A stretch of DNA of 64,000 bases from an uncultured archaeon (GTDB lineage Archaea > Iainarchaeota > Iainarchaeia > Iainarchaeales > GCA-2688035), in assembly GCA_964354805.1 (NCBI GenBank), contig CAYHBD010000042.1, positions 26,455-90,454 on the forward strand. The letters run 5' to 3'. A program made the position numbers and the translations under genes. The first letter of the stretch is position 1. Each line of letters starts with the position of its first letter. Positions 2,045 through 36,261 of this stretch are shown in pieces. The notes beneath the pieces are model-generated. The model was not told where the DNA came from. It worked only from the letters and a program-made list of their open reading frames with translations, and made no database searches.

Positions 2045-4966
2045 TCATTTCTTTAACTCAATTGAAAAGCTTCTTTCAATCAGCTTTTCTTTCACTTCTT
2101 TCTCAACAATCTGCATTGCGGTGTTTGTCTCTTTTTCAATCCATTTTCTGTTGCCCTGCAAAAAGCTTTTGTCATCGCAGGCAACCAGCAGTAGTGCTTT
2201 TTGCTGGGGTAGCAGGTTTGCCTGCTTTCTCATCTCCTGAATCCTTCTCCTGAGTTCCTGCAGCTCCCACTCATTCCGCAGCTGCCCATCGGCATCCAAA
2301 AGCAAAAACAGCTTTGCGCCTGCAGCATCAGCCCTTGCATAATTTCCGCTTGGCTCTGCTGTTGCTTCAACAACGCGCTTTACATTGCAGCTGCTTGCAA
2401 TAACACTGTGCACTTTGCTGAACTGCTTTCCTTTGCCAGAGGCAGACTTTTTCCCAAGGCTTTTTTGCTTTGGCAAAAAAGGCTTTTTTTCTGTTACAAT
2501 GACAAGTTCCCTCAAAGGCCAGCGCAGCCGCAGTTTCTGCTGCTCTCTCAAAGAAAGAACAGCCTGGGTTAATTCTTTTGCGGAATCAAACTGCTTTTCC
2601 AGTTCAGGGTCAACCAGTTTTTTTTCAACGGCAGGCAGCTGCCTCAAGTGAATTGACAAGGGCATTTTTCCATTTCGCAAATGCTGGTAAATGTATTCGG
2701 TTATGTGCGGGGTGATTGGGGAAAGCAGCAAAAGCAGGCCGTCAATTACAGCCGACATTGTCTTGTTCACTGCCTGCGCTGTTTTTCCTTCTGTCCTGCC
2801 CCTGATTAATTTAATGTATGTCCTGCTCAAATCCTCTAAAACGAATTGCTCTATTGCTGCAGTTGCCCTGAAAAAATTATAGCTGTTATAAGCATCTGTT
2901 GCTGTTTCAATTAATGAATTCAGTTTGCTCAGAATCCACTTGTCTTCAACCTGCAAGCTAAGGGTGCTGATTTTTTTGCCCTTTGCAATGTCCAGCTTCA
3001 GATACATGTTCGCGTAGTTGAAGCAGTTCCAGAAGATTGAAAAGAAGCGGTGGATGTCCTTGAAGCTGTCCCAGTCAAAGGCAAAGTCCTCGCCCTTGCT
3101 TGTTGCAGTTAGATAATAGCGCAGGTAATCCCTGCTGTGTTTTTCAATTACCTCTTTCGGCTGGACTGCATTGCCCTTGCTTTTGCTCATTTTCCTTTTC
3201 TCAATGTCAAGCACAAGGCCGTGGACTGAAATTGTTTTGAAGGGCGCTTTGTCAAAAGCAATTGTTGAAAGGATTAACTCACTGTTCCACCATCCCCTAA
3301 ACTGGTCTGTTCCCTCAAGATTGAGGTCGGCTGGCCAGAAGCGCTTGAACAATGCGCTGCTTGCAGGGAAACCGAGTGCTGCCCAGCTGCTGACTCCGGA
3401 ATCAAACCAAACATCCAGAACCTCAGATACTCTGCGCATTTTTGCGCCGCAGCTGCATTTTATTTCCACTGAATCAATTTCCGGCTTGTGCAATTCCTTT
3501 ACTTTCTTTCCGCTCAATTTTTGCAGTTCTTTTAAGCTGCCAATTACTTTCTGCTCTTTGCATTTGCCGCACTGCCAGATTGGAATTGGAGTTCCCCAAT
3601 AACGGGCCCTTGAAATTGGCCAGTCTCCAATGCTTTCGAGCCAGTTCTGCATCCTGCTCTGCATCCAATCCGGAACCCACTGCACTTTGCCGTTCAATTC
3701 AATCATTCTTTTCTGAATGCTGCTTATTTTGAAAAACCATTGCGGAACTGAAAGCATGAGCAAAGGATTTTTGCATCTCCAGCACAATGGGTAATCGTGC
3801 GTGTAAGGGTGCCTGTAAACCAATGCATTTGCTTGCTCCAAATCGGCGATTATTTCCTTGTCCACTTCCCTGCATCTTTTGCCTGAATACTTTCCTGCTT
3901 CAGCTGTCATCAAGCCATTCAATTGCACTGGCGAAATTGCCGGCAGGCCTGCCTTGCTGCCTGCATCAAAGTCCTCTTTTCCATGCCCTGGCGCGCTGTG
4001 AACCAGGCCTGTTCCTTCTTCAAGATTAACGTACCGCTCGCTTAGAATTACTCTGTAAGCGTTTTTCAGCGGAGGCAATTGCAGGTGCTTTGCAAGCGGG
4101 TTCTCGTACTGCATTCCCTGCAATTCTTTTCCCTTAACTGTTTTTTCAATTGTAAAGCCTGCCTCAATCGCTGCCATCAATTCCTGCACTTTTTCCTTTG
4201 CAATCACCCATGTTTCGCCATTGCTCATTTTTGCAAAAGAGTAATCAAATGCAGGGTGGACCATCACCCCGGTGTTTCCAGGCAGTGTCCAGGGAGTTGT
4301 TGTCCAGACAACGAGGAAAGTGTTCTCTTCTCCTTTCACTTTGAATTTCACAAAAACAGCTTCATCTGTCAGTTTGCTGTACTCGATTTCATTGAATGCA
4401 ACTGCTGTTTCGCATCTCGGGCAGACATGCACAGGGTAAAGCCCTTTGTACAGCAGGCCTTTTTCTTCCGCTTTTTTGAAAGTCCACCAGATTGCCTCAA
4501 TGTATTCATTGCTCAAAGTGAGATATGGATTCTGCCAGCCCATCCAAACGCCCAAGTCATTGAATTCGTTGTTCATTACATCAATGAACTGCGTTGCATA
4601 CTGCTTGCATTCTTTAATGAATTTCCCCACTCCGTATTGTTCGATGTCCTGCTTTGATTTGAAGCCCAGCTTTTCCTCAACCTTGTTTTCAATCGGCAAT
4701 CCATGGCAGTCATAGCCAGGCCTGTCGAAAACATTGCAGCCCTGCATTCTCCTGCTTCTGATTGCAACATCCTTTTGGATCTTGTTCAAAGCAGTCCCCA
4801 TGTGGATGTGGCCTGTTGCATAAGGCGGGCCGTCCATGAAATAAAAAGCCTTTTTCTGCTTGCCACTCTGTTTCCTAACCAAGGCAGGCACTTTCCTTTT
4901 TAGCCAGAAGCGTGTTATTTCCTCTTCCTTCTGCCTGCTGTATGGCTCAAGTAATTTTTCGGGCAT
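2045..4966 (-). CDS. ileS: Isoleucine--tRNA ligase
   Basis: DGPPYATG-HMGT (HIGH), WTTTPWTLP, GTGLVH, KMSKS. Confidence 0.97.
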   Translation of the reverse strand: MPEKLLEPYSRQKEEEITRFWLKRKVPALVRKQSGKQKKAFYFMDGPPYATGHIHMGTALNKIQKDVAIRSRRMQGCNVFDRPGYDCHGLPIENKVEEKLGFKSKQDIEQYGVGKFIKECKQYATQFIDVMNNEFNDLGVWMGWQNPYLTLSNEYIEAIWWTFKKAEEKGLLYKGLYPVHVCPRCETAVAFNEIEYSKLTDEAVFVKFKVKGEENTFLVVWTTTPWTLPGNTGVMVHPAFDYSFAKMSNGETWVIAKEKVQELMAAIEAGFTIEKTVKGKELQGMQYENPLAKHLQLPPLKNAYRVILSERYVNLEEGTGLVHSAPGHGKEDFDAGSKAGLPAISPVQLNGLMTAEAGKYSGKRCREVDKEIIADLEQANALVYRHPYTHDYPLCWRCKNPLLMLSVPQWFFKISSIQKRMIELNGKVQWVPDWMQSRMQNWLESIGDWPISRARYWGTPIPIWQCGKCKEQKVIGSLKELQKLSGKKVKELHKPEIDSVEIKCSCGAKMRRVSEVLDVWFDSGVSSWAALGFPASSALFKRFWPADLNLEGTDQFRGWWNSELILSTIAFDKAPFKTISVHGLVLDIEKRKMSKSKGNAVQPKEVIEKHSRDYLRYYLTATSKGEDFAFDWDSFKDIHRFFSIFWNCFNYANMYLKLDIAKGKKISTLSLQVEDKWILSKLNSLIETATDAYNSYNFFRATAAIEQFVLEDLSRTYIKLIRGRTEGKTAQAVNKTMSAVIDGLLLLLSPITPHITEYIYQHLRNGKMPLSIHLRQLPAVEKKLVDPELEKQFDSAKELTQAVLSLREQQKLRLRWPLRELVIVTEKKPFLPKQKSLGKKSASGKGKQFSKVHSVIASSCNVKRVVEATAEPSGNYARADAAGAKLFLLLDADGQLRNEWELQELRRRIQEMRKQANLLPQQKALLLVACDDKSFLQGNRKWIEKETNTAMQIVEKEVKEKLIERSFSIELKK
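2448..2485. repeat. Palindromic repeat family A copy, in frame within ileS
   Basis: TTTTTCCCAAGGCTTTTTT-GCTTTGGC-AAAAAAGGCTT; first 19 nt identical to the tRNA-Pro(UGG) intron copy at 36183. Confidence 0.8.
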
Positions 4967-5040
4967 TTTGTTTCACTTATAATATATTTTATTAAATTAA
5001 AAACTATAAAGTTTAATCAATAAATTCCCAAAAACACCAG

Positions 5041-5775
5041 TCACAGTTTTTTTGTGAATTCCAGGATGAATTCGCTTTGTAGCGCGCGCATTTTTCTCAT
5101 GGCTGCTTTTGCCACCTCTTTGTTTCCTTTTTCTGCCGCTGCATACATTTCATGCGCGGTTCCATGAATTTTCCATTTTAAATCATTTGCTTTTTTTATT
5201 TCTTCCTGCGGACATTCAAGCAAATGCATTCTCTTTATTGTGGCGTTTGTAATAAGGGACTTTGGGCTGCCGTATTGCATTGCAACCCTTAAAATTTCGT
5301 CGTAAAATTTTCCCCGCCCGCAGTTCATTACTTGGGAAATAACTTTTTGCGGCACTCTCCTTTCATACCAGTTTTCAATGTGTTGTATAAGGGTCTCAAA
5401 AGATATTGTCTTGTTTGCGAAATCCTTCAGGTACCTCTTTAAGGTCGTAAAGGCAACAGGCGCAGCAAACACCCTCACAGCGGTTGCAACTGACAATGGC
5501 TTTGTTTCATTCAGTTGGCAAAGCCTCCTGATTACTTTCCTGCCTGCCCTTGGCTCCACTTCAAGAAAACGCGCTATTGTTGAAGCCGCATTTCTTACAA
5601 TCATTTTTCTTTTTTTATTTTTTGCAATGCTCAGAAGCAATTCAATTGCTCTCGGCGTGTTCAAAACAGGGGCCCTCTTCAGCAACCTTGCCAAAGCCAA
5701 TACTGTTTCTTTCACATGCCTCGGCTTCGCCGGCCGCCCAAGCCTTAATTTCGTCGGGTTAGCTAATTCATGCAT
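5041..5775 (-). CDS. Hypothetical basic helical protein
   Basis: 244-aa ORF with GGTGT RBS-like site and Arg/Pro-rich N-terminus. Confidence 0.65.
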   Translation of the reverse strand: MHELANPTKLRLGRPAKPRHVKETVLALARLLKRAPVLNTPRAIELLLSIAKNKKRKMIVRNAASTIARFLEVEPRAGRKVIRRLCQLNETKPLSVATAVRVFAAPVAFTTLKRYLKDFANKTISFETLIQHIENWYERRVPQKVISQVMNCGRGKFYDEILRVAMQYGSPKSLITNATIKRMHLLECPQEEIKKANDLKWKIHGTAHEMYAAAEKGNKEVAKAAMRKMRALQSEFILEFTKKL

Positions 5776-5803
5776 TCGCAGTTACACCTTGCAATAAATA
5801 CAT

Positions 5804-35882: not shown

Positions 35883-36031
35883 TGGGGCGTCGAGGATTTG
35901 AACCCCGGTCGCTACCATGTTGGAAACCCTGTGTTTTCTTTCTTTTCCACAAGGGCTTTTCTTTCTTTTTCTAAAAGAAAGAAAAGGGCTTCCCCAAGGT
36001 AGAATACTAAACCAAGCTATACTAACGCCCC
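35883..36031 (-). tRNA. tRNA-Pro(GGG) with 74-nt intron (35918-35991)
   Basis: GGGGCGT/ACGCCCC-A acceptor; CTACC-TT-GGG-G|intron|T-GGTAG; UUGG/CCAA central BHB helix. Confidence 0.9.
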
Positions 36032-36059
36032 CAACTCGATTTGAATCTTCTGATGCCTG

Positions 36060-36135
36060 TTTTCTTTTGACACAGCTTTTCACGCAAAGCCATTTTCTTT
36101 TGGTACAGCTTTTCTTTTCCCAAAAGAAAAGGTGT
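36060..36135. repeat. Palindromic repeat family A, bipartite variant between the tRNA-Pro genes
   Basis: Minus strand: ACA-C-CTTTTCTTTT-GGG-AAAAGAAAAG-C-TGT...AAATGGCTTTGCGTG; same layout as 30113-30182. Confidence 0.65.
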
Positions 36136-36261
36136 GAGGCTGCCCGGATTTGAACCGGGGTCGTATGCTTGTTTGAAAACACTTTTTCCCAAGGCTTTTT
36201 TCTGCAAGGAAAAAAGGCTTTCCCAAAGCATAAATCCTAGACCAGGCTAGACGACAGCCCC
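36135..36261 (-). tRNA. tRNA-Pro(UGG) with 52-nt intron (36170-36221)
   Basis: GGGGCTG/CAGCCTC-A acceptor; TATGC-TT-TGG-G|intron|A-GCATA; UUUG/CAAA central BHB helix. Confidence 0.9.

Follow-up and report, generated by a model that had tools for sequence, protein, structure and literature searches.

The window analysed here, a stretch of 64,000 nucleotides (G000:C42:26455-90454, where G000 is this genome, assembly GCA_964354805.1, and C42 its contig CAYHBD010000042.1) from an uncultured member of the Iainarchaeota (Diapherotrites, DPANN), carries several copies of a non-coding repeat that is dispersed over the genome and behaves like a mobile element. They lie in frame in ileS, the gene of isoleucyl-tRNA synthetase (IleRS), between genes and at the start of tRNA introns, and we consider it likely that they belong to a group of short mobile DNA repeats of Iainarchaeota, non-autonomous and probably acting as folded single-stranded DNA. 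New copies arise at A/T-rich sites, where the target duplication is absent or no longer than 3 bp. Those that are kept sit in places where the harm is small: in spacers, frequently as head-to-tail arrays; at the first bases of tRNA introns, which the splicing endonuclease would cut out together with the repeat; and, in frame, in tolerant protein loops, as in IleRS, to which an insertion of exactly 54 nucleotides adds a Lys-rich segment of 18 residues. The active form would be the folded single-stranded DNA of the strand reading TTTT-CCC-AAGGC, presumably recognised by some enzyme.

The genome comprises 1.38 Mb in 49 contigs (~44% G+C) and is 88.5% complete. Its most frequent 12-mer contains the core TCCCAAGGCTT, which occurs 60 times against 1.5-2.0 occurrences expected under Markov models of orders 1-3; in the window alone the exact 12-mer CCCAAGGCTTTT is present three times (2453, 30152, and 36188) against 0.06 expected, a number reached in none of 100 shuffles. 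This enrichment resides in the long conserved core: the 7-mer AAGGCTT by itself is not enriched genome-wide (641 versus ~620 expected), and a 12-mer search allowing two mismatches stayed at chance level (19 versus 19.15) and was uninformative. On the strand taken here as sense, the arms read AAGCC...GCCTT in 57 of the 60 core copies, which leaves a fixed C.C mismatch in the stem (G.G on the opposite strand), as had been claimed in an earlier note made from the letters of the window. A covariance model built on 40 of 59 parsed copies has at least 109 matches in the genome at E<=0.01, a lower bound since 150 of 4567 first-look candidates were scored, and the three main copies that the earlier note had placed in ileS, at 30148-30182, and in the intron of tRNA-Pro(UGG) reach 59.1, 44.9, and 55.6 bits, respectively. 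A generic regular expression for triplex hairpins (51 matches versus 13-23 in shuffles) missed the main family because the C's of the arm merged with the T-run, and the covariance model was used instead. Eleven of the matches are located in tRNA introns and, on crude gene calls, 42 are intergenic, 13 lie deep within open reading frames (ORFs) of at least 200 amino acids, and 40 further ones touch ORF edges or short ORFs.

Copy number varies widely among relatives. Exact-core counts range from 0 to 156 over 41 related genomes of similar size; the core is present in 21 of the 22 genomes of the same family, with 0-3 copies per genome outside it (reversed-pattern control, 0-4). Over the GTDB species representatives, a gapped version of the repeat pattern matches almost only Iainarchaeum-type metagenome-assembled genomes, plus a few contigs in otherwise labelled bins. 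Within a limited literature search, we found no published description of this repeat family.

Insertion into ileS and other protein genes

The copy in ileS (Table 1) is a true, recent insertion, defined to the base. All 19 IleRS orthologues from related genomes lack 18 residues of the G000 protein (...IV|SKTGKEF as compared with IV-TEKKPFLPKQKSLGKKSA-SGKGKQF), and the interval between RWPL and NVK, suspected in the earlier note of being longer than usual, measures 49 residues in G000 and 31 in each of the 19. The same site was found empty between close strains when contigs from four public metagenome runs were placed on C42:21001-41000: among the joints listed, one X2 contig (groundwater) and one X4 contig (sediment, another study), which diverge from G000 by 6.3% and 6.5%, respectively, join window position 2431 directly to 2486 and skip 54 bases (TTTGCCAGAGGCAGACTTTTTCCCAAGGCTTTTTTGCTTTGGCAAAAAAGGCTT on the + strand). 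The empty allele would encode V-T-E-K|G-K-Q-F, at orthologue length, if the flanks of these strains read as in G000. The insertion site is an A5/T5 run, and three bases (TTT) fit either side of the junction, so that the target duplication is 0 or 3 bp. Read on the + strand, the inserted unit consists of a small hairpin TGCC-aga-GGCA (2434-2444), a T-run followed by CCC (2448-2455), and a main hairpin AAGGC-T6-GC-tttg-GC-A6-GGCTT (2456-2485).

Since both flanks of the insert (ACAGAAAAA and GGAAAGCAG) are rich in purines, and no exon helix of a bulge-helix-bulge can form between them, we infer that this copy is retained in the mRNA and translated. In an AlphaFold2 model of IleRS based on an alignment of 20 sequences (mean predicted local distance difference test score, pLDDT, a modest 67.4), residues 828-845 form a loop with pLDDT below 50 between a strand (818-825) and a helix (850-859) whose neighbourhoods score about 86; this low value is expected and proves little, as no aligned sequence covers the insert.

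The creation of new protein sequence, which the earlier note had seen in IleRS, extends to other genes. In-frame units add 17 residues (51 nucleotides) to Dus, where the only orthologue found (81% identity) lacks them, 15 residues (45 nucleotides) to Elp3, absent from five of five orthologues, and ~37 residues to a Fic protein, absent from its single orthologue; the gene of a DHH phosphoesterase holds an antisense copy. In the Dus gene (G000:C30:16508-17563), the 3' arm of the small hairpin, GGCGC in gene sense, coincides with the codons GGC GCA, which are also present in the orthologue of G016; the inserted DNA appears to carry the complement of its flank, though this single case, with one orthologue, may be due to chance. 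Outside the window, carB (G000:C22:14237-14270, - strand) contains a 34-nucleotide hairpin (AGTCTATAAGGCAGTTAGCCTTTTAGACCGTCAA) directly after ...IGEAGE, with the frame shifted before FDYSG. Its sequence looks like a bulge-helix-bulge insert in the mRNA; we rejected it as a member of the repeat family, since it possesses AAGGC...GCCTT but without the T/A-run arms.

Architecture of the unit and its folding strand

Four parts make up a unit of 45-60 nucleotides: besides the T-run and CCC, these are a small hairpin and a main hairpin with the fixed G.G (C.C) mismatch. On the TTTT-CCC-AAGGC strand the main hairpin reads AAGGC-Tn-variable stem/loop-An-GGCTT and the mismatch is G.G. The outer arms and the mismatch are fixed, as is GGG-A4-6; the inner stem and the loop differ in nearly every copy with their pairing kept. 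The small hairpin is variable, often C-GAA-G or GCGN(N)AGC on the same strand, and across the genome it lies directly upstream of the main one in most non-intron copies (for example, TGCC-gaa-GGCA, GCAATTGC-gaa-GCAATTGC, or GTTTTGC-nnnn-GCAAAAC). Units adjoin head-to-tail without any spacer, as do three of them in C10:7039-7196. The sequence RGCTTYGCGTG, described in the earlier note as a linker shared by two copies, is indeed shared, as CACGC(G/A)AAGC at 30135-30145 and 36080-36090, but it is the second, small hairpin of the unit and not a linker. GCGN(N)AGC mini-hairpin motifs number 1784 in the genome (both strands), about twice the number expected from composition by a rough estimate, which suggests further hairpin modules beyond this family.

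The T-run at the head of the unit, read on the other strand as a purine tail, is a mirror image of the purine arm of the main hairpin, and the three tracts can therefore form a putative intrastrand triple helix. Among hairpins with an asymmetric purine arm and a tail run of at least six bases, the tail was the mirror of the arm in 20 cases and its direct copy in none, with 13 ties (10:0 with 3 ties in G000 and 10:0 with 10 ties at loci of its relatives). The variant unit at window 11969-12010 is an example: in AAGAAAAGG...GAAAAGAA the tail repeats the arm in mirror and not in direct order. Judged by tract order, the sense strand has the arrangement predicted for a class II intrastrand triplex, and the opposite strand that of the complementary pyrimidine-type class.

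The two strands differ in their loops. Loops of the G..A type close 18 of 61 main hairpins on the TTTT-CCC-AAGGC strand and 2 on the opposite one; GCGN(N)AGC is present in 26 of 60 units versus 2, and C-GNA-G in 33 versus 4. Loop motifs of these kinds are described as extraordinarily stable DNA mini-hairpins (PMC13037366, PMC3201870). Because the favoured strand is the template strand, not the RNA, both in tRNA genes and in ileS, the fold under selection is probably that of single-stranded DNA.

At 30115-30199 one unit probably lies inside another, with a full main hairpin and tail flanked by the two halves of a degenerate outer unit (Table 1). The outer unit ends in AAAAAGGCTT, followed by a TATA-like TAAATA ~25-30 nucleotides before the ATG at 30228, and several other copies end likewise, in GGCTT plus TTTAAAT or ATTAAT. 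The repeat may supply or target promoter-proximal sequence, the promoter before this ATG being a predicted one.

Transfer RNA introns

ARAGORN, run with introns allowed, predicts 44 tRNA genes genome-wide; 26 contain introns, and several of these are mislabelled. All 11 model matches in its introns have the sense orientation of the tRNA and begin 0-3 bases past the 5' splice site. Two introns with the repeat belong to neighbouring tRNA-Pro genes of the window (Table 1), both of which fold only once the insert behind position 37 is removed; the anticodon of the UGG gene was read one base off, as GGG. The last 12 bases of the tRNA-Pro(UGG) intron (UGUUUUCAAACA) find their pairing partners in the anticodon loop and in the first bases of the repeat. 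For the tRNA-Pro(GGG) intron, the variant of the repeat proposed in the earlier note is supported by the model (23.1 bits, E 4e-4, at 35940-35991 on the - strand); it reads AAGCCC - TTTTCTTTCTTTT - AG - AAAAAGAAAGAAAA - GCCCTT - GTGG - mirror tail AAAAGAAAGAAAA, and the intron end GGGUUUCCAACA pairs with the anticodon loop (UUGG/CCAA). When drawn by hand on sequence and fold, both introns have the canonical archaeal 37/38 geometry of two 3-nucleotide bulges around a 4-bp helix, with helix UUUG/CAAA and bulges GG|A and CA|A in the UGG gene, and helix UUGG/CCAA and bulges GG|A and CA|U in the GGG gene; the minimum-free-energy folds differ slightly from these drawings. Immediately upstream of the central helix, U- or G-rich bases pair with the start of the repeat (AAGC or AGCCC), which therefore supplies one strand of the outer helix. 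The genome encodes an EndA domain at C11:9474-9734 (94 bits).

Comparison with orthologous genes, assigned on exon similarity, revealed empty sites here as in IleRS, in the form of tRNA-Pro genes without the intron or without its hairpin. Among eight genomes, tRNA-Pro(UGG) has an intron in G000, G001, G012, and G016 and none in G008 (same family), G035, G025, and G036, and the four introns contain four different variants of the T/A-run hairpin. The 3' end GGTTTCAAAC is kept in G000 (GTTTTCAAAC), G001, and G012; the intron of G016 ends in ...CACCGCAAAC, sharing only GCAAAC. Likewise, tRNA-Pro(GGG) has long hairpin introns in G000, G016, and G023, plain introns without hairpin of 27 nucleotides in G012 and 15 nucleotides in G025, and none in G030, G035, and G036. 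Given that orthologous introns are absent, short and plain, or a different variant, the hairpin part is, as far as these comparisons indicate, turning over inside an intron frame able to exist without it. The 11 introns share the 5' unit and have 3' parts specific to each tRNA, so that the shared element is part of the intron and not the whole of it.

The fixed position and orientation in introns point to targeting or to a strong structural filter. If such a filter operates, only sense insertions at the first intron bases would keep a cleavable bulge-helix-bulge, and all intron copies would look alike for that reason. In the earlier note these introns were seen as safe havens for the element; the repeat does occupy introns that orthologues lack, but this image is too passive for copies that are all in one orientation, 0-3 bases from the splice site, and with bases drawn into the outer helix. 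It is possible, and we put this forward only tentatively, that the repeat is a new kind of archaeal mobile element, a 'triplex hairpin' of single-stranded DNA that carries no gene and belongs to no known transposase family, and that it is the donor of tRNA intron sequence in this lineage as well as a source of new loops in essential proteins. By inserting within the first bases behind position 37, such an element would lengthen, replace, and possibly create bulge-helix-bulge introns.

The placement of these copies also bears on a spread at the RNA level, in which the unit would be a tRNA intron that enters cut RNAs by reverse splicing or ligation, is then reverse-transcribed, and returns to the genome by recombination. 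Units have an exact start at the 5' splice site of introns and at the 3' end of tRNAs, both of them sites of RNA cleavage; the intron copies are uniformly sense, and the carB mRNA of the same genome has what looks like a bulge-helix-bulge insert. We nevertheless hold this route to be very improbable: a reverse transcriptase (PF00078) was not found in the 88.5%-complete genome, a bulge-helix-bulge is impossible at the ileS flanks, intergenic copies occur in both orientations by our tally, the loop motifs favour the strand antisense to the tRNAs and to ileS, that is, not the RNA, and purine-motif triplexes are reported not to form in RNA (PMC4666352).

Table 1. Copies of the repeat, related elements, and the genes that contain them (window positions; scores from the covariance model)
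Feature	Position	Strand	Details
ileS, isoleucyl-tRNA synthetase, 973 amino acids, host gene of the insert	2045..4966	-	ORF; full-length orthologues at 61-76% identity
Complete 54-nucleotide unit, in frame in ileS	2432..2485	-	exact skip in X2 and X4 contigs; 59.1 bits at 2446-2485
Variant unit with asymmetric purine arm	11969..12010	+	AACAG-CCTTTTCTT-AAA-AAGAAAAGG-CTGGC-GAAAAGAAGA; weak match at 11972-12008, 12.4 bits
Small hairpin GCGAAGC and 3' half of a second, degenerate unit	30115..30144	-	TTTTCCTAAGGCTTTTTGCAC (+ strand); weak match at 30115-30131, 10.7 bits
Intergenic full main hairpin with tail	30145..30182	-	spacer upstream of the ORF starting at 30228; 44.9 bits
5' half of the degenerate outer unit	30183..30199	-	AAAGCAAAAAGGCTT (+ strand); read from sequence
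tRNA-Pro(GGG) gene	35883..36031	-	exons 36031-35992 and 35917-35883; ARAGORN
tRNA-Pro(GGG) intron, 74 nucleotides	35918..35991	-	variant repeat at its start; 23.1 bits, E 4e-4
tRNA-trailer element starting at the tRNA-Pro(UGG) 3' end	36059..36135	-	10.9 bits with the main model
tRNA-Pro(UGG) gene	36134..36261	-	exons 36261-36222 and 36169-36134; ARAGORN
tRNA-Pro(UGG) intron, 52 nucleotides, position 37/38	36170..36221	-	repeat 36181-36220, 40 of 52 bases; 55.6 bits

Other intron-bearing tRNA genes predicted in the window include those at 5804-5923, 57494-57585, and 58998-59089; the second, called tRNA-Stop(tta), is tRNA-Gln(ttg) in a bacterial-mode run. In the genome as a whole, the short contigs C12 and C19 (60.6% G+C) and C14 and C24 (~30% G+C) deviate from the bin (~44%) and may be mis-binned.

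Mobility, its alternatives, and known repeat systems

A number of observations weigh against the reading of this family as mobile DNA, and they begin with the spacer behind tRNA-Pro(UGG). The earlier note had counted the sequence there (36060-36135) as another variant of the repeat with the same mismatch; it belongs instead to a subfamily of its own, related to the main family and located behind tRNA 3' ends, in which the mismatch is confined to this copy and the consensus arms ACAGC/GCTGT pair perfectly. The element reads ACACC-TTTTCTTTT-GGG-AAAAGAAAA-GCTGT-ACC-AAAAGAAAA, followed by a small hairpin GGCTTTGCGTG and a half unit. The same trailer stands behind tRNA 3' ends at C7:9803, C11:8156, C11:4928, and C38:2343, and a script flagged a trailer hairpin exactly at the 3' end of 12 of the 44 tRNA genes, to which inspection by eye adds one or two. 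Moreover, this subfamily recurs at tRNA 3' ends in other families of the order, and its outer arm covaries with the last bases of the tRNA (AC with GCTGT, GC with GATGC); such conservation and covariation suggest use by the host and are the best argument for host-serving members. Perfectly paired, copy-specific inner stems are not predicted by plain copy-and-decay either, and pairing that is kept while the stems change suggests either that the structure is under selection or that the copies are made by an unusual mechanism. The single position and orientation in introns fit function or targeted insertion as well as a filter. Orientation is fixed only there, since co-directional spacers hold 8 sense and 7 antisense copies in our tally and the 13 matches deep in ORFs are 8 sense and 5 antisense, without clear bias. 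Finally, polymorphism between close strains was seen at the ileS site only, among the joints listed and from contigs, not reads.

Several of these points could be accommodated if the units were host signals, that is, cis elements such as bidirectional oligo-T terminators, RNA-end or processing signals, or promoter-proximal elements, their numbers being due to selection and the coding copies being rare accidents. Every unit has T-runs on both strands, and several copies end in GGCTT and a TATA-like run 25-35 nucleotides before a start codon, as in window 30190-30228, besides the trailers at tRNA ends and the inner stems that change sequence yet keep their pairing. We judge this explanation unlikely, however, because no selection for a terminator is to be expected within tRNA introns or within ileS, Dus, Elp3, and Fic, and such copies are among the best model matches (59.1 and 55.6 bits). 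The spread from 0 to 156 copies between related genomes of similar size, the empty orthologous sites, and the nearly even orientations in co-directional spacers also argue against it, as does the report that PIT/BoxC triplex elements are without promoter or terminator activity in E. coli (PMC4666352).

The search for a mover adds to the points against mobility, since none was identified among Y1 transposases, TnpB, reverse transcriptase, and viral carriers. The genome encodes two IS200/IS605-type Y1 (HUH) transposases (PF01797; C35:614-967 on the - strand and C13:1382-1729 on the + strand), and matches to this domain occur in 15 of the 41 related genomes. The expectation in the earlier note of an HUH (RAYT/TnpA) transposase flanked by the repeat failed: in G000 and its relatives, the core repeat lies within 1.5 kb of none of 11 Y1 loci, which are bounded by unrelated G+C-rich hairpins of the IS200 type. 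The number of Y1 genes correlates only weakly with repeat copy number within the family (Spearman rho 0.28, p 0.2); over all 41 genomes rho is 0.43, without phylogenetic correction. G001 and G002 have many repeats (32 and 15 copies) and no Y1 matches; G004 and G023 have many Y1 genes (7 and 5) and few repeats (3 and 2 copies). On these grounds (no adjacency, unrelated ends, and weak correlation) we rejected a link to RAYT/HUH enzymes. TnpB (PF07282) was not found in the 88.5%-complete genome, including as a partner of Y1; given this completeness, the gene absences are not proof. In IMG/VR the gapped pattern has no matches, and the 10 matches of a 17-mer all lack the hairpin architecture. Searches of the Y1 loci, TnpB, and IMG/VR thus yielded no autonomous parent element sharing the ends of the repeat.

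Alternatively, the units might arise without a dedicated enzyme and without transposition, by replication or repair errors at A/T runs, such as fold-back synthesis, template switching, or gene conversion between copies. No mobilising gene turned up in the searches above, fold-back synthesis yields perfect inner palindromes that differ from copy to copy, as observed here, the small hairpin in Dus appears to take one of its arms from the native flank, the trailer arm pairs with the tRNA's own end, and in bacteria a link between intrastrand triplex repeats and genomic instability is described (PMC4666352). Such an origin seems quite improbable to us, since template switching does not produce the mirror tails (20:0) and leaves unexplained both the 60 identical 11-mers with a fixed mismatch and the clean insertion of a whole 54-nucleotide unit at a site without prior similarity.

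We therefore compared the family, taken as a small non-autonomous mobile repeat, with known systems. The full definition of none of the Rickettsia palindromic elements (RPEs), REP/RAYT, triplex repeats, or Thermoproteales intron transposition describes it. REP sequences with RAYT (HUH Y1) and the miniature elements derived from IS200/IS605 are short imperfect palindromes with a strand-specific mismatch that suggests recognition of folded single-stranded DNA, a two-hairpin unit, and little or no target duplication. Our repeat resembles them as a short imperfect palindrome with many copies, two hairpins, a mismatch, and little or no target duplication, but it flanks no Y1 gene (0 of 11 loci), the ends of the resident IS200-type elements are unrelated, and it is not essentially extragenic, with 11 copies in tRNA introns and 13 deep in ORFs of at least 200 amino acids. 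Hence, of the REP/RPE-like non-autonomous element proposed in the earlier note, mobility and the RPE-like in-frame insertions stand, whereas the analogy with REP/RAYT does not. Classical miniature inverted-repeat transposable elements offer a further comparison, the target duplication in ileS being 0 or 3 bp and no parent element having been found in the searches above.

RPEs are described as palindromic bacterial elements of ~150 bp found in frame in unrelated housekeeping genes and also between genes (Ogata et al., via PMC10969869). The Iainarchaeota repeat is likewise dispersed and palindromic, adds peptide segments in frame to protein genes, and also occurs between genes. In contrast with RPEs (~100-150 bp, bacterial, and of other sequence families, a distinction drawn from their description), its unit is archaeal and only 45-60 nucleotides long, has a mirror third tract, and fills tRNA introns as well. 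BoxC, PIT, and TM-ECO sequences of class II carry, on one strand, a pyrimidine arm, a purine arm, and a purine tail that mirrors the latter, the opposite strand being of the complementary class (Holder et al. 2015, PMC4666352), and they share with our family this tract order, many copies per genome, and loops less conserved than stems. However, TM-ECO is presented as G/C-rich, with its own consensus, bacterial, intergenic, and a source of instability (PMC4666352), whereas the present family, set apart from it by that description, is A/T-rich, has a fixed mismatch and a second hairpin, and occurs in introns and ORFs. Lastly, Thermoproteales have closely similar introns in different isoacceptors of one genome, implying movement at the DNA level (Fujishima 2010, via PMC4090602, bioRxiv 10.64898/2026.10.13.758758), and here too intron sequence is similar across isoacceptors under the constraint of the bulge-helix-bulge. 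The Iainarchaeota introns differ in sharing only their 5' portion, the 3' portion being tRNA-specific, and the shared sequence is abundant outside tRNA genes and in ORFs, which provides a pool of donors.

Small non-autonomous prokaryotic repeats as such are already known; what is new here is the exact empty site in ileS, the division of the unit into two hairpins, the difference in loops between the strands, and the test of transposase loci. The family offers an RPE-like case in an archaeon, in which selfish DNA adds residues to essential enzymes, and an A/T-rich repeat of the triplex type, a kind so far characterised mainly in bacteria. The targets that it combines are unusual and have a bearing on how archaeal tRNA introns originate, the mechanism of intron transposition being called unknown in a review (PMC4090602). 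A repeat that is abundant outside tRNA genes, has recently entered a protein gene, and makes up most of many tRNA introns renders intron gain and turnover testable with population metagenomes and, if it does act as an intron donor, would provide a concrete and still-active answer to the question of where archaeal tRNA introns come from.

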